A stretch of 64,000 bases of DNA from Roseibacillus sp. GTDB taxonomy: Bacteria > Verrucomicrobiota > Verrucomicrobiia > Verrucomicrobiales > Akkermansiaceae. Below the pieces are notes generated by a model. The model was not told the DNA's origin. It did not search any database and saw nothing but the letters and a program-made list of their open reading frames with translations. The DNA lies in contig JBPOGI010000005.1 in NCBI GenBank assembly GCA_051251855.1, positions 128,001 to 192,000 on the forward strand, written 5' to 3'. The translations under genes and the position numbers were made by a program. Each line of letters starts with the position of its first letter. The stretch's first letter is position 1. Shown here piece after piece: positions 731-33,746 of the stretch.

Positions 731-1813
731 TTACTCAAGTTCGAGGAGTTTACGGGCGTCGGGCGTGAAGTGTGAACTGATCAGCTTGTGACGAATGACC
801 TCTTGGTCGAACGGATTGTATGGTTCATCCAGCAGACAAGGGGTTAAGCTCACTGAATAGTCGAGTGAAGAAGGCATAGCAAAATAGTAATCTACTTCAA
901 AACCAGCCAGTGCGGCCCGAATGTCTCTCTGGTCGCCGAGCGAACAGCGACAACCAAATACGACTCTCTTGATTAGGTTTCTGTTGTATCCTCGGACATA
1001 CAGCCAATCATTGCGTTTTATGAAGTGAGGGTAAATAGAATCGTTAGCGTTTTTATCAGTAGATAAAGTTTCAGCCATTTTAAGAGGAAGAAGGACGCGG
1101 AATTCTTTCTCATAACTCCAATTATTGGATTTCCAAAAAAACTGTTGGAATGTCGTTTCAAGGCTTAGTTCCTTTGGAAACGAATACCGTTTCTTTTCGT
1201 ATCGGACTTTTCGAATATTGCCGATAAACTCTCGACTAGGAAGATCTGAGGGCATTGGTTTGTTGGCCATTTGGTGGCAGTCAGTAAGGAGGTCGAACCA
1301 GGAATCAGAGGAGTCGTATCCCACGCAAAACCCAGTATGTTTGTTTGCGTAGTGGCTCCACATCAGGTAACTCTCTGGATCGCTAGAAAGACATAGAACT
1401 CCAAACATTTCAGAGAGTTGACTTTGAACTTTCTGCTGTCGTGAAGACTCGAGTGGGTTTTGTTTTTGTGGTGAGGTTGCTTCGACAACTTGCTTCCAAG
1501 CTTCTTCAGGTAGAATATCTTTTAGTTTTTGAGACTCGAAATGACAACGTAGAGTATCCGGAGGCGCTTGCTCAAAAATCTTCTCGAAGAGTTCATGGAG
1601 GTTACTTTCTTCGATCAGCTGCCCTATGGTCATGTTGAGAACTATTTCCTGATGAGATGTGAAAGAGTGGTCTGACTGAATTGGGTCTGGAACTGCAGAC
1701 GCCTCAAAAGGGTCATTGAAATCAGTTAGAAGTGTGAATTTGATTGAGCCTTCAGAGACAGTTTTTAGAGACCCCTCTGAGCAATCTAAATATTTGTAGA
1801 GGAGTTTTTTCAT
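731..1813 (-). CDS. DUF2971 domain protein
   Basis: LYKY start, FNDPFE, LMWSHYANKHTGFCVGY and KSNNWSYEKEFR motifs; AT-richer than neighbours. ATG 1813 preferred over the TTG at 1894. Confidence 0.85.
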   Translation of the reverse strand: MKKLLYKYLDCSEGSLKTVSEGSIKFTLLTDFNDPFEASAVPDPIQSDHSFTSHQEIVLNMTIGQLIEESNLHELFEKIFEQAPPDTLRCHFESQKLKDILPEEAWKQVVEATSPQKQNPLESSRQQKVQSQLSEMFGVLCLSSDPESYLMWSHYANKHTGFCVGYDSSDSWFDLLTDCHQMANKPMPSDLPSREFIGNIRKVRYEKKRYSFPKELSLETTFQQFFWKSNNWSYEKEFRVLLPLKMAETLSTDKNANDSIYPHFIKRNDWLYVRGYNRNLIKRVVFGCRCSLGDQRDIRAALAGFEVDYYFAMPSSLDYSVSLTPCLLDEPYNPFDQEVIRHKLISSHFTPDARKLLELE

Positions 1814-1874
1814 TTTTTGACGATAGGCAGCATGGTGTTCTCGGACTTGTAGAAGATTTTCTTGTCCGTAATTT

Positions 1875-2042
1875 TTATTTTTCTCTGGTGCCAATTTTGC
1901 TTCTTCGCATTTCCTGTCTCGCTTCCTTGTGATGCTGAATGACCTGTTGGCGGACTTCCTCGATGGTCCGCTGCTTGGGCGGTAGTTTGGATAGCGCGGC
2001 GTTGACGGCTTGGAGTTTTTTGGAGGGGCCTTGGACTTTCAT
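1875..2042 (-). CDS. Small basic hypothetical protein (55 aa)
   Basis: ATG 2042 to TAA 1875: MKVQGPSKKLQAVNAALSKLPPKQRTIEEVRQQVIQHHKEARQEMRRSKIGTREK. Fills the gap between Abi and DUF2971 in the same orientation. Confidence 0.5.
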   Translation of the reverse strand: MKVQGPSKKLQAVNAALSKLPPKQRTIEEVRQQVIQHHKEARQEMRRSKIGTREK

Positions 2043-2060
2043 CTGAGGGGGAGGTGCTTG

Positions 2061-3170
2061 TTATTTCGGCGCTAGGGTTGCCAGTTTTTCTTGCCAGTCA
2101 GAAGGGAAGCCCATGGGTTCGAGGGTGACTGAGGGGTGTTTTTCAATGAGTTGGGTGAGGTGTTCGAGCCATTTGGATTCTGGTTCGATTGACCATAAGC
2201 AGTAGAGGACCGTTGCAATCTGGGCGAATAGGAGATCGTTAGATTGAAGGATGTGCTTCAAGTTCTTTTTCTTTGAGGGGCAAAAGATGAAGCGGCGATC
2301 CCACAAGCGACTGTGATGTGCGCAGGCGTTTCTGAGATTGGTGAGGGCGTGAATCCATGAGGTGAGTTCGGGTGTGCTCGCGCGGAAGTATCTGGCAACC
2401 GGTTTTTGGTCTGAGGCTTCAGCTAACATACCGTAAGCTTTTGACCAGTTGCCCATGCTTAGAACATCAGCTAGCATCCAGCACGGGGGAATAGGAGGGT
2501 CTCCATAGGTTGCGTAGTAGTGCTTAATGGAGAGGGATTCTTTGTTGCGGCGGGCTTCCTCGTAGGTTTTGATGAGAAATTCCTGATGGTTAAAGAGGAG
2601 TTCGTCGGAGTTTTTTTTGGTTTTCTTACTGAACCGGTTGGGGTCCATAAACCAGTGAGGCCCATAGCGAGTCGCCATGGTATCGTTCAAGCGTTCACGG
2701 AAGGCGATTTCGATTCGTTCGATGGCATCGAGAACGAGTAGGCGAAGGTGTCGATCAAATTGGTAGAGATCGGTGAGATGCTCGAATCGCGTCCCTTCTT
2801 TGTAGGAGTCGGTGAGCCTTCCATTCTCGTCTTGTATTCGGAATTGAAGTCCGAAACCTGAGAGGCGGTAGTAGCCAACTTTATGGAGCCACTCGAGGGC
2901 GACTGCTTTGTCGTCTATTGCGACACCTCGTTCACTCAAGATTTGAATGAGCTCTTCTTGGGATTGATGCTCTTTCTGGAAGGTGTTCGCAGTTTGATAT
3001 CCCGGTACAGAGAAAGGCGCGACCTGGTTCGCTTCCGAAAATCGGAGTCGCGTGCCGCGCACTGTCGTGGCTTCTATCGTTGATATGTCGCTATGATTCA
3101 AGAGAAAACTGCGCAACTCAGACTCTAAAACACTGTCTGGAGTTGGGTTTTCTTCCTGATTTTCAGTCAC
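2061..3170 (-). CDS. Abi family (Abi_2, AbiD/AbiF-like) HEPN protein
   Basis: VGYYRLSGF, LYQFDRHLRLLVLDAIERIEIAFR, PPCW and HEPN motif LRNACAHHSRLW. Start uncertain (GTG 3170 or GTG 3062). Confidence 0.9.
   Translation of the reverse strand: MTENQEENPTPDSVLESELRSFLLNHSDISTIEATTVRGTRLRFSEANQVAPFSVPGYQTANTFQKEHQSQEELIQILSERGVAIDDKAVALEWLHKVGYYRLSGFGLQFRIQDENGRLTDSYKEGTRFEHLTDLYQFDRHLRLLVLDAIERIEIAFRERLNDTMATRYGPHWFMDPNRFSKKTKKNSDELLFNHQEFLIKTYEEARRNKESLSIKHYYATYGDPPIPPCWMLADVLSMGNWSKAYGMLAEASDQKPVARYFRASTPELTSWIHALTNLRNACAHHSRLWDRRFIFCPSKKKNLKHILQSNDLLFAQIATVLYCLWSIEPESKWLEHLTQLIEKHPSVTLEPMGFPSDWQEKLATLAPK
3017..3060 (-). ncRNA. Candidate Abi-associated structured RNA (nested hairpin)
   Basis: Sense strand GCGCGG-CACGCGAC-TCCGA-TTT-TCGGA-AGCGAACCAGG-TCGCGC: outer stem with a G-U pair and an inner perfect 5-bp stem, just ahead of the conserved Abi core. 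Confidence 0.4.
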
Positions 3171-21902: not shown

Positions 21903-24557
21903 ATGGCAACTGGTGTGGATGAGGTTCGTGAGCTGGCTTTGGTGCAAAAAGCGCGAGGCGGGGATGAGCGTGCCTTTGTGGAATTGGTGGGAGTCTATCA
22001 GAATCTGGTGACCTCGGTGACGCTATCGGTATTGGGGGAACGGACCTTGAGCGAGGATGCGGCGCAGGAGGCTTTTGTGCGGGCGTGGAAGAGCTTGGGA
22101 CAGTTGCGGGAGGAGAAAAAGTTTCGGCCCTGGCTCATGGCAATCGCACGGCGCAGTGCTTTGCGGATGCTCTCGGAGCGGAAGGGGACGAAGGTAAATT
22201 TAGTGGGTGAAGAAGAGTCGGGGCCAAGGCCTGATGAGTTGGCGGCGCGGAGTGATGACTTGGAGTTGGTGATGTCGAGCTTGGCGGGTTTGCCGGAGAA
22301 GTATCGCCTGCCGATGATTTTGTTTTATCGTGAAGGAGAGTCGGTGGCAGTGGTGGCGGCGAAATTGGATTTGCGACCAGATGCGGTGAAGCAGCGTTTG
22401 AAGCGGGGGAGGGATTTATTGCGGGAGAAGGTGGAGTCGCGGATGGCGCGAGCCTTACGCATGTCGGCTCCGGGGACTGTGTTTACAGTGGGGGTTGCGA
22501 CGATGGTTTCTCAGGTGGGGGGTGCCGGGACGGCGGTTGCTGCGGGAGCGGCAGGAAAAGTTTTTGTCACCTCGGGCTCGGCAGCAGGCACTTCATCAGT
22601 AGCCAGTGGGGCGACGATGATGAGTTCGAAATTTTCTACTATTACAGCAGTAGCAGTGGTGCTCGTGGCAGTGCCAGTGGGCTATGGAGTGCGGGAAGCC
22701 ATTACACAAGGAGAGCCGAGTAAGGCGGTAGTGCCTTCGGTTGTTAGAGAGAGGGACGCGGGGGCGTTGGAGGTGCTTCGCAAGAGGCCGCTACCCCCTA
22801 GCCAAGTGGTGGATGAATGGGAGCGGCTGTTAGAGGCGCACGGGAGGACTGGGGCTGGGATGGCGGCCATCCATGAAGAAGTGAGTGAGTTAGAGGTGGG
22901 CTTTGTGCGGAAGGCGTTGAGGAGTGTTGTGGTTACGGAGTGGGTAAGGTTAGATGCGAGGGGAGGCTTTGAGGCGCTCTTCAACGGTCGGGATAGGGAG
23001 AGTAGATACCTGTTTCTGGAAGAGTGGATGAAGGCGAATCCAAGCGAGGCTTTGGAGGCTACGGTGTCTTGGGTGAAGGCTGATTCGGACCGGATGTTTC
23101 CGTTAGGAGCGGCGCTCATCCTAGCGGAAAGGTCGCCGGAACTTTTTATGGATGCTTTGTTGCAGCTACCCGACCAGCTGGCATCGAGTGGTTCGGCCAC
23201 TGAAGGGTTGGCTCTGATTGCGAGTCAAAGACCCTTAGAGTTAAGGGATGTCGCTATGAGGCTGGACGAAGGTCCCCGGCGGGAGGTGCTGGCGCCGGCG
23301 TTGAAGGGTTGGGGGGAGTTCGCTCCGTTGGCGGCCTTAGATTGGATCAAGTCGAATGAGGCCGAGGACGAAAGGATTCAATCGAATCGGTTCTTTTGGG
23401 TGACTGAGGGGTGGTCTAAAGAAAGGCCGAGGGAATTCTTAGCAAAATTGAATTCGATTTGTGAGGCAGGTCCGAAGGGGTGGAAACGGGAGGTTCTTTA
23501 TTCGAGGCTGGCGACGATGGCTCTGGCGGAGTTGGCGAAGGAAGACTTGGAGGAAGCTTTCCGCTGGTGGGGAAAGCATAGAGATGAAGTGAGTATCAAT
23601 CAGGGCCATCATAAGATGACTGCTGTCATTCGTGAGGAGGTGACTCGCAATCCTAGAAGAATGATTGGGATTTTGGATGAGTATGATTTGTTAGCTGAAA
23701 CAAGAACCTTGTTTAATAACACGGGGAACACTTCTGATTTGGGTGCCAAGTGGCAGGAGTTAGGGGAAGCGGTGAAAGAGGTGGAGCGGAGTGGTGGGCG
23801 GGATCGGTTAGTGAGGTCGGTGGCGTTGGAGTTGCAGGAGCGCTCTCCTGATGAGGCGATCGCTTTTGTAGAACTTGCCGATGGAGGGCTAAAGGATTCG
23901 TGGGCTAGAAAAAGCGTGGCAAGCAAAATGGTGGGGCAGGATGTGAATTTGAAACGGGTCGAGGAGTTGGTCCGGAAATTTCCTAAGTGGAGAAACGACT
24001 TTCAAGCGGAGGGGTTGCAGAAGGTCTTAGTGAAGAGTCGAGAGAGCTGGGGTGAGTTGAATTATCGGGAATGGATTCCCATGTTTGAGGAATTGGCTGC
24101 AAGGGATTACTTTGAGGGGTTCAATGACTATCAGCCCTTTATGCTTCATTTTGGAGGGCCCTATCTGGCGGAGGAGCCAGAGGCTGCCTTGAGTTGGATG
24201 CACGGAGTGATGGAGGGGCGAATGGACGCAAATATTGAGGACAATTTTGTGGGGCAGGCTATCGGAATGTGGCTGAAGGAGGAGCCAGAGCGAGCGATGG
24301 CTTGGGCTTCTGAAAAAGGTCTCGAGACGTTTTCGGATGAAGTGTTGGATGGAATGACTTGGGGGGTGGAACGAGAGGAAGTGGGCTTGCCGTTCTTCTG
24401 GAAGATTTTTGAGGCATCTGAGCCGGGAGGGAGCAGAGTCAATATGGTATACTCGCTGGTAGAAGACCTTGGAGTTGAGAAAGTGCGCGCGGGCCTGGAG
24501 GGAATTGAGTTGACGGCAAAGGAGCAAGCAATAGTGGAGGTTTTTTTGAAACGATGA
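21903..24557 (+). CDS. ECF sigma-70 factor fused to a TM segment and a large C-terminal repeat domain
   Basis: sigma2 (EDAAQEAFVRAW...FRPWL) and sigma4 (LPEKYR...VKQRLKRGR), hydrophobic helix, then W-x3-(D/N/E)P-x2-A helical repeats. Confidence 0.85.
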   Translation: MATGVDEVRELALVQKARGGDERAFVELVGVYQNLVTSVTLSVLGERTLSEDAAQEAFVRAWKSLGQLREEKKFRPWLMAIARRSALRMLSERKGTKVNLVGEEESGPRPDELAARSDDLELVMSSLAGLPEKYRLPMILFYREGESVAVVAAKLDLRPDAVKQRLKRGRDLLREKVESRMARALRMSAPGTVFTVGVATMVSQVGGAGTAVAAGAAGKVFVTSGSAAGTSSVASGATMMSSKFSTITAVAVVLVAVPVGYGVREAITQGEPSKAVVPSVVRERDAGALEVLRKRPLPPSQVVDEWERLLEAHGRTGAGMAAIHEEVSELEVGFVRKALRSVVVTEWVRLDARGGFEALFNGRDRESRYLFLEEWMKANPSEALEATVSWVKADSDRMFPLGAALILAERSPELFMDALLQLPDQLASSGSATEGLALIASQRPLELRDVAMRLDEGPRREVLAPALKGWGEFAPLAALDWIKSNEAEDERIQSNRFFWVTEGWSKERPREFLAKLNSICEAGPKGWKREVLYSRLATMALAELAKEDLEEAFRWWGKHRDEVSINQGHHKMTAVIREEVTRNPRRMIGILDEYDLLAETRTLFNNTGNTSDLGAKWQELGEAVKEVERSGGRDRLVRSVALELQERSPDEAIAFVELADGGLKDSWARKSVASKMVGQDVNLKRVEELVRKFPKWRNDFQAEGLQKVLVKSRESWGELNYREWIPMFEELAARDYFEGFNDYQPFMLHFGGPYLAEEPEAALSWMHGVMEGRMDANIEDNFVGQAIGMWLKEEPERAMAWASEKGLETFSDEVLDGMTWGVEREEVGLPFFWKIFEASEPGGSRVNMVYSLVEDLGVEKVRAGLEGIELTAKEQAIVEVFLKR

Positions 24558-28476: not shown

Positions 28477-29211
28477 ATGAACAATCAAAATCAGGGGCTT
28501 TCCGTGCCTTTTTTCGGAGCTTTGGTGGGGGTAAGCCTTTCACTATCGGCATCAGTTTCGGCTCAACTTCAAGGCCTTGACGTGCTGAACACGACAAACG
28601 GATCCTTTTCGGTGAGTGAGATGCAGTTCGGGGACGATGTCCTCTATTTCATCGATATCTTAAATGGGGGTTCTCTCGGAGGAGTGATTTTTTCATTCGA
28701 TGGCGGCGAAGGAGAGACAGATCCTCGTGGTGGCCTTGGTGGATTGGATGAACGCGAACCGATTGAGGAAGGACCGTTCGATGAAGGTCCCGGGAGTGAA
28801 GGATTCGTTTCCTTTTCAGGTGAATCGGTGTTTGCTCCTTGGGGGGTATCGTTCATGAGTGAGGAGAGTTGGAACGAGGGGGTGAACATTCAAATGGGCG
28901 GAGGAGTTCACTCGACGCTGGACCTTGGTTCATTTGGTTCTTTGTTTGGCTTGGATGATAATTATGCGGTCCTCTATTCTGATGTGTTGGGAGGTAACGC
29001 GATGACTGAGTTGAACGATGTTGATGGCTTGAACGCCGGCAATTTTGAGGAATACGCTCCTCATTTTGTGAGATATACGGGTGAGATCGCGACCAACGGG
29101 CTCTTTTTTGACGGCAATGGGGTGGTGATTGGTTCGACTGTGCCTGAGCCGACTTCCGCTCTGTTGGTGGCGTTGGGTTCTTTGGTTTTGCTAGGTCGGC
29201 GACGGAGCTAG
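28477..29211 (+). CDS. PEP-CTERM sorting domain protein
   Basis: Signal peptide; C-terminal VPEPTSALLVALGSLVLLGRRRS. Confidence 0.9.
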   Translation: MNNQNQGLSVPFFGALVGVSLSLSASVSAQLQGLDVLNTTNGSFSVSEMQFGDDVLYFIDILNGGSLGGVIFSFDGGEGETDPRGGLGGLDEREPIEEGPFDEGPGSEGFVSFSGESVFAPWGVSFMSEESWNEGVNIQMGGGVHSTLDLGSFGSLFGLDDNYAVLYSDVLGGNAMTELNDVDGLNAGNFEEYAPHFVRYTGEIATNGLFFDGNGVVIGSTVPEPTSALLVALGSLVLLGRRRS

Positions 29212-30299
29212 GATTTTCGGATCGGCAATAGCAGGCGGGAGAACCCGTGTGCGAGCACGACTCCCAGAAAAAGAACATTGCGAAGTAGCAGGAGGGGATG
29301 GAAGGGAAGTCGAATGGAGCAGGGATGAAACTCTGCGGTCGCCTTCGCTAAGGTCTCGAATTGGTAAACTTTCACGGGGAATTCTAGGATGGGAGTCATC
29401 CATTTTTTAGGAAAGGAATCGGGGCCATGGAGAGTGCCGCAAAGGGCACCCAAAATGGCTCCGGTAGTGTCGGTGTCTCCGCCTGCCTCCCAGATGGCTG
29501 GGAGTGCTTGCTCGGGTTTCCAATGATTTTTCATGCCACAGTGGAGGATGGCTGCTAGAGTGTGGTAGCAGTAGCCGGAGACCCCTTTCTGCGGTATTCC
29601 TCCGATGGCTTTGAGGAGGTTGTCCAGGGTTCCTTCGTTTTCGAGGTTGGCGCGAACTTCTTCTAGCAATGTTCGGAAGGAGGAGTTGGAATCGGGAAAG
29701 ATGATGGTCGACCAAATTTCGTCGGGTGTTGGAGCTTCTCTTCTGTTAGAAAAGAGGGCGGCGAGTTCGACGACAGCTCGCGAGCAGGATTCCGCTTTGG
29801 GGTCGGTATGGGTAAGGCGGGTTTGGATGCGGTTGAATTCTTGGCGTTTGTCCGGTTCATCGTGAAAGACGACACCGAGTAAAGCAGCGCGCATGCAGGG
29901 GCCATTGCCTGCGGACAAGACACCTGACTTCTCAGGAGAGGCTCCAAACCAGAGTTTGATGATTGCGCGGGCGGTGGCTAATCCGACTCCTGCGGGTAGA
30001 AAGAGAAACCAGTGCTTGAGACCGCGAGCTAGGAGGCGTTGAAATTTGATAGGGTCGCCGCCGGAATGGTTGAGAGCTTGGGCGAGAATGAGGGTGTGTT
30101 CGGTATCGTCGCTCCACAATCCTTTGGCAAACAAGAGGTGGTGCTGCCAGTCGGGAGCCCAGCCTCGTTTAGCAATGGAGGCGGGTGAGAGCCCCTCTGC
30201 AGGAAGACCGACGGAGTCGCCAATGGCGGTGCCGATGAGGAGTCCGTGGATTCGGATTGCAGTCTCAAGTTGAGGGGAAGATCTGATGTCCTTGCTCAT
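29208..30299 (-). CDS. ADP-ribosylglycohydrolase (DraG/ARH family)
   Basis: GTAIGDSVG, WSDDTE, SAGNG...MR, TH, GGDTDTTGA; hydrophobic C-terminal extension. Confidence 0.93.
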   Translation of the reverse strand: MSKDIRSSPQLETAIRIHGLLIGTAIGDSVGLPAEGLSPASIAKRGWAPDWQHHLLFAKGLWSDDTEHTLILAQALNHSGGDPIKFQRLLARGLKHWFLFLPAGVGLATARAIIKLWFGASPEKSGVLSAGNGPCMRAALLGVVFHDEPDKRQEFNRIQTRLTHTDPKAESCSRAVVELAALFSNRREAPTPDEIWSTIIFPDSNSSFRTLLEEVRANLENEGTLDNLLKAIGGIPQKGVSGYCYHTLAAILHCGMKNHWKPEQALPAIWEAGGDTDTTGAILGALCGTLHGPDSFPKKWMTPILEFPVKVYQFETLAKATAEFHPCSIRLPFHPLLLLRNVLFLGVVLAHGFSRLLLPIRKS

Positions 30300-31498
30300 A
30301 CTGCTTCGTGAAGGTGGAGGGGGGCTTCGTTTGTGCCGTTTTCGAGGCGGATGAGTTTATCGGGGTTGCGCTCTTGGGCGACGAGGATGGCGGTGAGGTC
30401 GGCGTTGGCGGTTTGGAGGTAGGTCCACTCTTGGGCGCGGAGTTCTAGCAGTTGCTTGCGATGGGTCTCTTCGGTGGCTTGGCGTTGTTTGAGGAGTTGG
30501 AGTTCGAGTTCTTCTTCTGCTTGGCGGGTGGCGAGGGTGGCGTTACGGTTTTCCTCTTTTTGCTTCAATTCGTGTTCGAGGGTGCGCTCTTGTTCGGCGC
30601 GATTGAGGAGGGCGCGTTCGTGTTCGTGGGTTTGTTGGAAGTCGGCGATTTCCTGACGGCGTTCTTCGGTCTCGGCTTCGAGGACGAGGGCGGTGCGGGT
30701 TTCGATGGCGTGGTCGTGCATTTGCTGGAGTTTGTTGGGGGCGAGGTAGCCGCGGTAGACGACTTTGGTGACGTCGTAACCGATGCGTTCGGCACCGCGT
30801 TGGAGTTCGCGGTAGGTGGTCATTTCGTTGAGGATGGCGGCTTCGGTTTTGAAGTCTTCGAACTTGCGTTTGCCGGCGAAGCGGATGATGTCGGCGGTAA
30901 GTGCATTGATGAAGTCGGCGATGGGGTCGTGGGTTTGGGCGAGCATGCGCTCGATGTCTTGGAGCTCAAAGAAGAGCATCACGCGCACGGTGATGAGGGC
31001 TTCGTCTGCGGTGCGAACGCCTTCGACATCGAAATACATTTGGTCGGGGATAATGCGCAGTTTGGTGAAAGTGAGGGCGCGGGGAATTTTTTGGCCTTTG
31101 CCGTTGTCTCCGTGCCAGCGGAACTGGTGCAGCCATTCGTTGGGTTGGGGGACGTAGACGGCGGGGCCGGGTAGAATGCGGTGGGTGACTTCGCGCTCGA
31201 CCTCGCGGTAGATGACGACGGCTTGGTTGGCGTCAAGGTTGATGGCTCGCTTGACTTGGACGGTCTGGTGAAGGAGAGGATCCATCCAGAGGTCAATGGG
31301 GCCGGCAAGGTGTTCGGTGGTGCCGTCGTGGTTGGCGACGATGAGGTATTCGCCATCGCGAGCGATGAAGCGTTGTAGGTATTCTGCGCGTTCGTTGAGG
31401 GTGAAGAGGACTTTGGGTCCTACGACGATGCGGCGGGTTCCGTTGCGGTGCCAGAGGGCGGCGGCTTGACCGTCTTGGATGGTGGTAGGGAGGATCAT
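30296..31498 (-). CDS. Major-vault-protein-like SPFH (Band 7) protein
   Basis: Three short repeats each containing GP, an SPFH/shoulder-like core (VRTADEALI...DPIADFINAL...FEDFK) and a long E/Q/R-rich coiled coil. Stop overlaps the ARH start (ATGA). Confidence 0.75.
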   Translation of the reverse strand: MILPTTIQDGQAAALWHRNGTRRIVVGPKVLFTLNERAEYLQRFIARDGEYLIVANHDGTTEHLAGPIDLWMDPLLHQTVQVKRAINLDANQAVVIYREVEREVTHRILPGPAVYVPQPNEWLHQFRWHGDNGKGQKIPRALTFTKLRIIPDQMYFDVEGVRTADEALITVRVMLFFELQDIERMLAQTHDPIADFINALTADIIRFAGKRKFEDFKTEAAILNEMTTYRELQRGAERIGYDVTKVVYRGYLAPNKLQQMHDHAIETRTALVLEAETEERRQEIADFQQTHEHERALLNRAEQERTLEHELKQKEENRNATLATRQAEEELELQLLKQRQATEETHRKQLLELRAQEWTYLQTANADLTAILVAQERNPDKLIRLENGTNEAPLHLHEAV

Positions 31499-31529
31499 GG
31501 TTCTGGTCTTTCTGGTTTGAGGTTGGAGT

Positions 31530-31583
31530 TTTATAAGTGTAAAAAATACACAAGTCAAGGTGAAGGTGTCACTTTTACACTTT
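31530..31583 (-). promoter_or_regulatory. Sigma70 promoter with two NrtR-type operators
   Basis: Minus strand TTGACT-N17-TATAAA (31558-31530); palindromes GTGT-N7-ACAC at 31537-31551 and 31566-31580. Confidence 0.75.
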
Positions 31584-31779: not shown

Positions 31780-32712
31780 CTATGCGCTGAGCTTTTGAAG
31801 CTGTTGCTCGCGCCAGATTGAGGGGGAACAGCCGTTTATTTTGGCAAAGGAGCGGTTGAACTGGGAGAGGGATTGGAAGCCGACTTGGAAGGCGATCTCG
31901 GAGACGCGGGTGGAGGGCCGGAGGAGTTCTTTACGCGCCCAGGCGATGCGGGCGCGGGTGACGTAGTCGGTGAGGGTGAGGCCAGTGATTTCTTTGAAAA
32001 CCCGGCAGAAGTGGCTTTCGGACAGGCCTGCTTGGTGGGCGATGACACCGAGGGGTAGGGGTTCGTCGAGGTTGGCGTGGATGAAGGTGCGGGCTTTGAG
32101 GATGGCCGCGGGTTCCTTGCCTTCTTCCATCATGGCGAGTTCTTCGGCGTGTTGGGAAAGTTGATTGCCGAAGGATTCGAGGAGGGCGACCATGGATTCA
32201 TAGCGCTTGGGATCGACGGTTTGGGTTTGGAAGTAAGCTTCCTTGAGGGGAGAAAGGTTGGATTCGTCGATGCCATCGGCGACGAGGGTTTTGGCGACGG
32301 CGTCGAACTTGCCTTCGGTGGGGAGTTGCCGGAAGACTTGGCCGGTTTTGAGGAAGCCGATGGTGGTGGCACCGATGCGGATGGGAACGGCGGTGGCGCA
32401 AAGGCCCGCGAAGCAGCCGCAAGACGAGGGGCCGGCGACTTCTGCCTGCGCCATGAGCTTGTGGTTGACGGCTTTGCATTCGCTACAGGCGGTGCTGCAG
32501 CGGTGAAGCATTTCGCAGAAGGGGGATTGGTTTTCGCGATGCTCGTTGAGGCACCATTGCTCGTCGGAGCGCATGAAACGGAGGGGGAGGCCGGTGGCGA
32601 GGCGGAAGGCGTCGCAGTAGTTTTTGAAGAGTTCGGACTCTTGGAGACGCAGAAAGAGAGCTTGCTCGAAGCTGGGGAGCTTAGCTGTTTTCTTCTGTGC
32701 GTTTGTCTTCAT
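31780..32712 (-). CDS. AraC-family regulator with N-terminal PocR-type sensor domain
   Basis: FRLATGL...SPFC...CFAGL...AVPI...GQV sensor domain; AraC HTHs (SESHFCRVFK, IAFQVGFQSLSQFNRSF). Confidence 0.9.
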   Translation of the reverse strand: MKTNAQKKTAKLPSFEQALFLRLQESELFKNYCDAFRLATGLPLRFMRSDEQWCLNEHRENQSPFCEMLHRCSTACSECKAVNHKLMAQAEVAGPSSCGCFAGLCATAVPIRIGATTIGFLKTGQVFRQLPTEGKFDAVAKTLVADGIDESNLSPLKEAYFQTQTVDPKRYESMVALLESFGNQLSQHAEELAMMEEGKEPAAILKARTFIHANLDEPLPLGVIAHQAGLSESHFCRVFKEITGLTLTDYVTRARIAWARKELLRPSTRVSEIAFQVGFQSLSQFNRSFAKINGCSPSIWREQQLQKLSA

Positions 32713-32807
32713 GGCTTCTGGCGGGGATACTGGAGAAACGGGCCCTCTCTTGCAAGTCGAACTCGTTCGTTTTGGCGGGAGAGGTCTCTTTTGTGGAATT
32801 TTGTTGG

Positions 32808-33746
32808 TCAGCTCTTTTGTCGGGGAGATTCCATGGTGACGGTCTTGGAGAGGCGGGTGACAGCGGCGTTGAGGTCGCGGATTTGGTTGGAGAGGGTGGC
32901 GACTTGATGGGGGAGGTCGAGGGTGCTGCTAGTACCGTCGAGGGCGGCTTCGGCTCTTTTGATGGCTTCGATTTCGGCATCGACGCGGGCGTCGTCCATG
33001 CCGTTGACGATGACGCCAATGACGAGGTTGAGCATGACCATGGTGCCTAAGAGGACAAAGGAGACGAAGTAGGCGGTGGCGAGGATGGGCTGGGCTTTGG
33101 GCTCGAGAGGGGGATAGTGGGAGGCGAGGCTGGCGGCGCTGATGTTGTAGCCTTCGTAGACGTGGGAGCCGTAGATTTGGAGATACATGACGTCGGTCCA
33201 GTCCTCGAGGGTGACGATGCGGAAGAGGGAGAGGAGGGCGTCGAAGATGTTGCCGAAGTGGACGGGGTCGTTTTTGGCGAAGAACATCACTCCGGCGACG
33301 GCGTAGACGTAGAAGAGTAGGAGGAGAAGAACGGTGACGTAGAGCATGGAGGGGAGGCTCTTGAGGAGTGCGTTGACGAGCAGTTGGAGCTTGGGGACGG
33401 AGGAGAGGAGGCGAAGGACTCGTAGGAGGCGGAAAAGTCGGAGGACGGGGCCGAAGCTTCCGCTGGCAGGAATGAGGCAGACGGCGACGATGATAAAGTC
33501 GAAGACGTTCCAGCCGTCTTTGAAGAAGTCTTGGGGACGGGGGGCGAGGGCGACTATCTTGATGACGATCTCGGCGATGAAGATGAGAAGGACGAGCCAG
33601 TCGAGCGTTTTGAGAAGGGTGTGATATTTCTCGTAGGTGGGCTCGTGGGTTTCGACGCCGACAAGGATGCCGGCGAAGACGATGACCGCGATGATGAAGC
33701 GGTTAAAGAGAGGGGAGTTGACGAGAGCCTGGCAGCGTTCTTTCAC
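32808..33746 (-). CDS. Bacterial voltage-gated Na+ channel (6TM ion transporter)
   Basis: DGWNVFDF, S4 RLFRLLRVLRLL, filter TLEDWTD, S6 LNLVIGVIV, C-terminal coiled coil. Confidence 0.92.
   Translation of the reverse strand: MKERCQALVNSPLFNRFIIAVIVFAGILVGVETHEPTYEKYHTLLKTLDWLVLLIFIAEIVIKIVALAPRPQDFFKDGWNVFDFIIVAVCLIPASGSFGPVLRLFRLLRVLRLLSSVPKLQLLVNALLKSLPSMLYVTVLLLLLFYVYAVAGVMFFAKNDPVHFGNIFDALLSLFRIVTLEDWTDVMYLQIYGSHVYEGYNISAASLASHYPPLEPKAQPILATAYFVSFVLLGTMVMLNLVIGVIVNGMDDARVDAEIEAIKRAEAALDGTSSTLDLPHQVATLSNQIRDLNAAVTRLSKTVTMESPRQKS

Follow-up and report, generated by a model that had tools for sequence, protein, structure and literature searches.

Locus structure

We analyzed a 64,000-nt stretch of DNA (hereafter, the window) from Roseibacillus sp. 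(GCA_051251855.1, contig JBPOGI010000005.1, positions 128,001–192,000; 4.96 Mb genome, 95% complete). Two adjacent minus-strand genes in it encode a compact protein that is almost certainly a major vault protein (MVP) homologue and an ADP-ribosylglycohydrolase (ARH), placed behind predicted operators of the repressor NrtR. The MVP-like gene (P0001; 31498–30296) was defined as an open reading frame of 400 amino acids (aa) from its ATG and assigned by Foldseek and VIA-align, and the ARH gene (P0002; 30299–29208) encodes 363 aa. The two overlap in an ATGA stop/start (30296–30299, minus strand), which a first-pass annotation of this DNA had described as an overlap with an ARH/DraG gene. The overlap and the ARH family assignment hold (PF03747, E = 5e-51; acidic motifs intact), but the DraG label does not, as the protein scores far below the equivalog cut-off (TIGR02662; 76.5 vs 337 bits) and is likewise below that of Tri1 (28.5 vs 490 bits). 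Nitrogenase control of the DraG/DraT type was rejected on the same score; profile searches of the genome, in which the controls were also silent, gave no DraT or PARP family match.

Upstream of the operon lies a predicted minus-strand sigma-70 promoter (31530–31558) composed of TTGACT (31558–31553), a 17-nt spacer, and TATAAA (31535–31530). The operon had been credited with its own promoter earlier, and the same layout upstream of related operons supports this; a generic promoter scan did not call the TTGACT-TATAAA pair, reporting one chance-level site against 0.7 expected. Two predicted NrtR-type operators, 21-bp palindromes with a GT-N7-AC core, overlap the promoter: operator 1 (31563–31583; 19.7 bits, rank 3 in the genome) lies upstream of the -35 element, and operator 2 (31534–31554; 19.3 bits, rank 4), 29 bp away, lies between the -35 and -10 elements.

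The acidic motif residues of ARH proteins act in metal binding, and those of the window protein (D28, S63-D64-D65, D275, and D277) are invariant in all 39 aligned subfamily members. The hydrophobic tail noticed in the first-pass annotation is also real: a C-terminal segment (~336–360; 29220–29294, minus strand) is conserved across the 39 members, with a Kyte-Doolittle 19-residue maximum of 1.92 at 342–360 (range 1.1–2.3 over the subfamily), and it is a possible membrane anchor. Two further ARH-family genes exist in the genome (C1:1581069–1581968 and C1:744257–745036, the second within a 579-aa frame), neither with a top-scoring operator.

A three-repeat protein with the MVP domain order

Searches with the 400-aa protein recovered 1,477 relatives at E <= 0.001 among 7,178 candidates, and 74 of these were used for an AlphaFold model with a mean predicted local distance difference test (pLDDT) score of 84 (tail 377–400 under 50). 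The model contains the parts first described by eye, namely three beta-rich GP repeats (~1–41, 42–85, and 86–126; 31121–31498, minus strand), an alpha/beta SPFH core (~147–254), and a 109-residue helix (255–363; 30410–30736, minus strand). By alignment, the stretch between repeats and core (31040–31120, minus strand; W128, H129, K137, P139, R148, and D152) is a loop and strand that corresponds to the keyhole loop of MVP. The SPFH or MVP shoulder domain proper (~154–254; 30737–31039, minus strand) is the most conserved part of the protein, with 30 of its 101 positions reaching 80% conservation or more in a broad alignment, and the helix would be a shortened equivalent of the MVP cap helix, as the structural alignment continues to MVP 767–784.

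When the whole model was submitted to Foldseek, ranks 1–12 were all MVP (best E = 1.4e-13), followed by stomatin (4e-8). VIA-align superposed residues 1–374 onto rat MVP 320–769 (Z 13.7, root-mean-square deviation [rmsd] 7.3, 360 aligned). SPFH domains scored nearly equally in VIA-align (Z about 11–13), but their alignments start only at about residue 85 or later, and the shoulder domain itself matches the SPFH domain of stomatin (Z 13.2, rmsd 1.9, 109 aligned). The decisive comparison was made with the repeats alone (residues 1–154, pLDDT 92), for which the first 15 Foldseek rows were all MVP (best E = 9.4e-5; next 0.28) and VIA-align gave Z scores of 8.4 (rmsd 3.6, 132 aligned) and 6.9 to MVP, compared to 4.9 for the next non-MVP fold. 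Profile-profile comparison with 20 full-length myxobacterial MVPs returned HH probabilities of 95.6% (residues 5–120) and 95.3% (85–173), although the shoulder-only comparison reached just 38.9%. Sequence profiles matched eukaryotic MVP weakly (E = 0.042 and 0.078). In Pfam, PF17795 (Vault_3) scored 14.8 bits, below its 28.8 cut-off, and PF11978 (MVP_shoulder) did not match the 400-aa protein; a single-sequence search of the PDB returned two coiled-coil matches (E 0.19–0.46) and no MVP, and NCBIfam and PADLOC gave no match.

Because the whole-model and repeat-only structure matches agree with the profile-profile comparison, the protein is, on these models, almost certainly an MVP homologue that combines a shoulder and a shortened cap helix with three repeats, which we take to be R7–R9 in the MVP numbering. 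The MVP order with three repeats proposed in the first-pass annotation is thus borne out, as is the MVP fold of the repeats. Its five by-eye pairings with human MVP fared less evenly: VRTADEALI, DPIADFINAL, and KFEDFK lie in the best HMMER stretch, KRAINLDANQ appears only in a weaker alternative stretch, and RRIVVGPK was out of register, since MVP 478–485 aligns to the third repeat (106–113).

The third repeat occupies the place of both MVP R9 and the first subdomain of canonical SPFH proteins. Single repeats scored low against the first subdomain of prohibitin, HflK, erlin, flotillin, and stomatin (Z 3.9–4.9 over ~41 residues), which hints that MVP repeats may be multiplied copies of that subdomain.

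Predicted NrtR operators in the genome

NrtR is an ADP-ribose-sensing repressor that binds 21-bp GT-N7-AC operators and, in other NrtR proteins, is released by ADP-ribose (available part of PMC2330246). A palindrome with this core was found upstream of nrtR in 55 of 58 loci, and the operator matrix was built from 105 sites in those 55 upstream regions, all from other genomes. Scanning the 4.96 Mb genome returned five sites over 15 bits (next 11.8), all located just upstream of three operons: pncB-nadE (22.0 bits), nrtR-pncA (20.9 and 15.8 bits), and the MVP-like-ARH operon. The nrtR gene of this genome lies at C1:1623977–1624654. Tandem pairs over 15 bits were absent from 60 shuffled genomes. 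Given these predicted operators, the MVP-like gene is very probably a member of the NrtR regulon, a context that sustains the link to ADP-ribose biology drawn in the first-pass annotation. Next after nadE, and under the same operator as pncB, comes a Nudix domain that stands alone and is related to the N-terminal part of NrtR (L130:3845–4249; C1:1043844–1044248); it is likely the regulon's ADP-ribose pyrophosphatase in this genome.

Gene neighborhoods across relatives

We surveyed the best 80 of 161 genome loci (flanks up to 6 kb; the loci are related, not independent) and the best 80 of 282 metagenome loci, a sample that shares some of its members with the genome set. The genome loci had neighbors encoding NrtR (60/80), PncA (51), any ARH (47), Nudix (43), NadE (32), KptA (31), PncB (30), PARG (18), NADAR (8), Macro (8), and DUF4291 (5); by type, ARH neighbors belonged to the subfamily of the window gene in 41 loci and to other ARHs in 23. 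At least one regulon-type neighbor was present in 67 of the 80 loci, with all matches but one on the same strand, and chance adjacency was rejected. Of the 60 genome loci flanked by 3 kb or more on each side, 51 had NrtR and 40 had ARH, leaving 20 without ARH. Among the metagenome loci, NrtR was found in 50 and ARH in 26 of 80 (23 and 12 of the 25 flanked to the same extent). The conserved link is therefore to the NrtR regulon (NAD salvage, Nudix, ARH, PARG, NADAR, Macro, and KptA) and not to ARH alone.

The gene directly downstream of the MVP-like gene is more often Nudix (31/80 genome and 34/80 metagenome loci) than ARH (7/80 and 8/80). The window ARH subfamily holds that position in the closest relatives (L003–L005, L062, and L134–L136). 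Such direct pairing typifies the Verrucomicrobiales lineage that is closest to this genome. Close relatives have the gene order nrtR-(pncA)-MVP-like-ARH, and in a congener (L115, G529) an operator and nrtR precede a fragment of the MVP-like gene (1507–1605), its first 33 codons at 79% identity, which is followed by ARH. Based on these gene orders, the window operon looks like what is left, two genes and their retained operators, of an operon that was once larger. Where nrtR is missing beside the MVP-like gene, a predicted operator still lies ~60 nt upstream (L033, L035, and L058). The 13 genome loci lacking regulon neighbors comprise two with an operator (L033 and L035), one that is broken and has a short upstream flank (L042), and ten that form a single clade.

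As a control, we examined 13 of 20 full-length myxobacterial MVP loci, those on longer contigs, and none of the 13 regions (13–18 kb) contained regulon genes or operators. Among 301 genomes of the class, the window ARH subfamily occurs in 18 (E <= 1e-30) and the MVP-like gene in four (one a partial match at a contig end), and only two have both.

The nucleotide-binding site of human MVP

Human MVP binds NAD+, ADP, and ADP-ribose between adjacent shoulders behind the keyhole loop through 13 named residues, and this loop is described as unusual to MVP (both from the accessible text of PMC12280208); ADP-ribose was also observed at the human shoulder site in native brain vaults (accessible text of bioRxiv 2026.05.01.722283). 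The keyhole-equivalent region of the 400-aa protein aligns to human MVP 500–521 in HMMER and, within residues 85–173, to the myxobacterial MVPs. Human K506, P508, and D521 correspond to K137, P139, and D152 in the HMMER alignment, and these three residues, together with W128 and H129, are invariant in 74 of 74 close homologues. The same alignment to human MVP pairs P565 with H190 and L517 with R148, and an Arg at the L517 position is common to the 400-aa protein and the myxobacterial MVPs. W545 falls on F177, a similar residue, only in an ungapped register, as HMMER treats this part as an insertion. A conserved site in the same place as the human pocket is thus plausible from the alignments, and the chance that the MVP-like protein binds a nucleotide falls a little short of even.

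A proposed role in ADP-ribose clean-up and its alternatives

We propose, with a probability of roughly 55%, that the MVP-like protein forms an MVP-type ring or half-cage that belongs to the NrtR regulon, is induced by ADP-ribose, and serves NAD and ADP-ribose clean-up. NrtR, predicted to bind the computed tandem sites, would keep the operon off until NAD+ cleavage or ADP-ribosylation of macromolecules generates free ADP-ribose and releases the repressor, as established for other NrtR proteins (PMC2330246, part available). The three operons, whose genes are identified, would then be induced together: PncA, PncB, and NadE from nrtR-pncA and pncB-nadE would rebuild NAD+, and the MVP-like gene with ARH would strip ADP-ribose adducts. 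The fold suggests that copies of the protein would pack laterally into a ring or half-cage, in the manner of vaults and SPFH proteins, and we consider a large oligomer probable from the model. The least certain step, with odds slightly below even, is binding of ADP-ribose, NAD+, or ADP-ribosylated material by the protein at the keyhole site between subunits, which would buffer the ligand or gather it for the clean-up enzymes. ARH would be a frequent co-regulated partner, not a fixed cargo; a cargo role is unlikely, and its enclosure by the particle decidedly so. Regarding the trigger (phage, toxin, or metabolic stress), the patchy spread of the gene and a proposal made for similar ARH operons (accessible part of PMC9503650) favor conflict. 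The more specific reading, in which ADP-ribose or NAD+ binds in the shoulder pocket of a mini-vault that acts in recovery from NAD+ depletion and hostile ADP-ribosylation, is tentative.

Several observations speak against the proposed clean-up role. On average, a shuffled genome contains 8.8 sites scoring above 15 bits and 1.25 scoring above 19, showing that the real count is not in excess, so that the case for the operators rests on their position and tandem spacing. Relatedness among the surveyed loci lessens the weight of the counts, and the ten-locus clade (L070 and L072–L080; Gemmataceae, Myxococcota, and others; SH-aLRT 99) has neither regulon genes nor operators, which implies that the family can work outside the NrtR context. 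The myxobacterial control is weakened because queries and matrix were derived from PVC (Planctomycetes-Verrucomicrobia-Chlamydiae) genomes and may miss divergent myxobacterial genes or sites. The gene is also rare and dispensable, being present in 4 of 301 class genomes and truncated in the congener. In the pocket, only 3 of 13 human residues are identical by sequence alignment, the phosphate-binding R511, K573, and R507 are replaced by L142, N198, and I138 while R437 is unaligned, and K137, P139, and D152 drop to 51–52 of 78 in the broad alignment. Moreover, mapped pocket positions are invariant in 7 of 12 cases compared to 42 of 128 across the region (P = 0.052).

The alternative that survives best, although unlikely, is an inner-membrane SPFH-type cage that shields or organizes proteins during ADP-ribose stress without binding a nucleotide; the ARH tail could then co-localize the enzyme. 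NrtY of other NrtR regulons, which we take to be an SPFH protein, fits this idea, as do the ranking of SPFH cages directly after MVP (stomatin E 4e-8, Z 11–13) and the loss of most basic phosphate-binding residues of the human pocket. A subpopulation of vaults also binds membranes (accessible part of PMC13100048). The 400-aa protein, however, has no hydrophobic anchor (hydropathy maximum 0.98), maxima above 1.6 being confined to 8 of 74 close homologues, and the keyhole-equivalent loop, unusual to MVP, is present with invariant residues.

Still less probable is the system envisaged in the first-pass annotation, a mini-vault devoted to binding or enclosing the neighboring ARH and to countering ADP-ribosylating toxins or phage enzymes. 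The ATGA coupling and the position of the ARH subfamily directly downstream in the closest relatives are what such a pair would show, the genome searches gave no DraT or PARP family match (controls silent), and NrtR-controlled ARH operons without a cognate transferase have been proposed to reverse viral ADP-ribosylation (PMC9503650, part available). Against it, the neighborhood survey placed ARH directly downstream at few loci and found none at 20 of the 60 well-flanked genome loci. Similarly, 16 of the 18 genomes with the ARH subfamily lack the MVP-like gene, two of the four with the MVP-like gene have no match to this ARH, and the congener keeps nrtR and ARH with only 33 MVP-like codons. There is also no PADLOC match. 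In the form first given, the dedicated two-gene system is unsupported. Least probable of all is a passenger, a gene whose job is unrelated and which entered a mobile NrtR operon in a single capture and travels with it: the linked loci may descend from one capture (two changes on the tree), an unlinked clade and eukaryotic members exist, and the gene is easily lost, but NrtR control has been kept across several phyla at 42–66% identity despite many changes in gene order, and the operator is kept even where the MVP-like gene stands alone.

Distribution and repeat number

The MVP-like gene occurs under predicted NrtR operators in Verrucomicrobiota, Planctomycetota, Acidobacteriota, Armatimonadota, and others (42–66% identity), with varied gene order, and its spread is patchy (3 of 41 relatives, one a fragment). 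Cultured carriers are Haloferula rosea, Oceaniferula spumae, Adhaeretor mobilis, and Cerasicoccus. Beyond the three-repeat form, repeat counts among 18 chosen proteins were 5, 7, 9, and about 11, the higher counts being inferred from spacing with some weakly scoring repeats; longer members add two-repeat units. By duplication of such units, five proteins (P0124, P0126–P0128, and P0191; 629–809 aa, ~7–11 repeats) approach the canonical MVP length independently. Proteins related to the ten-locus clade (P0133 and P0135) have long N-terminal extensions, and one genome (G368) has both the short form and a full-length MVP.

Six of ten distant members looked up are labeled as protists (Paulinella, Copromyxa, Lenisia, Pelomyxa, Pellita, and Lithocolla), and of those members of the nearest Atlas cluster that have a record, 67% are eukaryotic; contamination is possible in both cases. 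A quick tree of 96 rows (L032, L042, and L062 left out) leaves the long eukaryotic branches unplaced and gives no direction of transfer. Among proteins of 738–2105 aa there was no family match at E <= 0.01, which is weak evidence because members of 762 and 809 aa turned up in another search. Viral contigs yielded no relative (six pattern matches, none confirmed), and a viral fold search returned SPFH-type proteins (best E = 7.8e-10). PF11978 was found in 0 of 101 genomes of the same phylum, with silent controls.

Comparison with known vault and SPFH systems

Eukaryotic MVP (rat 4V60 and 6BP7; human 9BW5, 9R86, and 9MXJ) shares with the 400-aa protein the repeat fold, the repeats-shoulder-helix order, and the keyhole-equivalent loop, whereas it differs in length and repeat number (861–893 aa and nine repeats vs 400 aa and three) and has a longer helix. 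Identity is 13–19%, the window protein falls below the Pfam cut-offs, and most basic pocket residues differ. Canonical MVP self-assembles into a closed cage of 78 copies, and vaults carry TEP1, PARP4, and vault RNA as minor components; no TROVE, DUF4062, or PARP match was found in the 95% complete genome (PARP control silent).

Prokaryotic MVP homologues are already known, including full-length forms from bacteria and phages and an Asgard form with five repeats, two more than here (accessible parts of bioRxiv 872010, PMC3762200, bioRxiv 2023.11.10.566534, and PMC12962969), and all share the fold. The fetched full-length homologues have open frames of mostly 800–970 aa and pass PF11978, unlike the 400-aa protein, and the compact family sits in NrtR regulons whereas none of the 13 myxobacterial loci do. 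Canonical SPFH cages (stomatin, HflK/C, prohibitin, erlin, flotillin, and QmcA) share the SPFH core and long helix from about residue 85, but have a membrane anchor where the MVP-like protein has two further repeats; Band_7 matched 7 of 74 family members at E <= 0.1 and not the 400-aa protein.

The 21-bp operators, the pncA/pncB/nadE targets, and the ARH, Macro, and NADAR genes agree with the described NrtR regulon and ARH-centered operons (PMC2330246 and PMC9503650, in their accessible parts). The regulon members in the accessible part of PMC2330246, including Table 1 (Blastopirellula: pncB-nrtR-pncA; nadE), name no MVP-like gene, and the terms vault, MVP, and SPFH occur 0 times in that of PMC9503650. 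In the literature covered, which mostly excludes subscription papers, we found neither a three-repeat MVP nor an MVP belonging to an NrtR regulon. The compact family could be included in Extended Data Fig. 5 of PMC12962969, a tree of shoulder domains, or among the sites tabulated in PMC2330246.

What vaults do has long been an open question. In recent structures, the MVP shoulder contains NAD+ and ADP-ribose, beside an ADP-ribosyltransferase and an NADase. Bacterial gene regulation adds an independent line that ties an MVP homologue to ADP-ribose, through a repressor released by that metabolite, and provides a simple setting in which the proposed handling of NAD and ADP-ribose by vaults can be tested. 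Because the protein has 400 aa, its inducer is defined, and carriers are in culture, its assembly, its ligand binding, and the phenotype can be tested directly, and the natural variants with 3, 5, 7, 9, and ~11 repeats allow repeat number to be tested against cage size. If the pocket-binding mini-vault reading is true, ADP-ribose handling would be a task that the vault fold took on in ancient times, before PARP4 and TEP1 arose, and its bearer would be a second MVP lineage that varies in height (3 to ~11 repeats) and is found in diverse protists too.

Other features of the window

Upstream of the operon on the same strand (31780–33746) lie genes for a PocR-AraC regulator and an Ion_trans channel, neither among the recurring neighbor clusters of the relatives. 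An 884-aa extracytoplasmic function (ECF)-type sigma factor with a long C-terminal extension (21903–24557) is followed by a 577-aa gene without a Pfam match. At 734–3170, DUF2971 and Abi_2 (abortive-infection-like) genes adjoin a ribonucleotide reductase operon in a lower-GC stretch.

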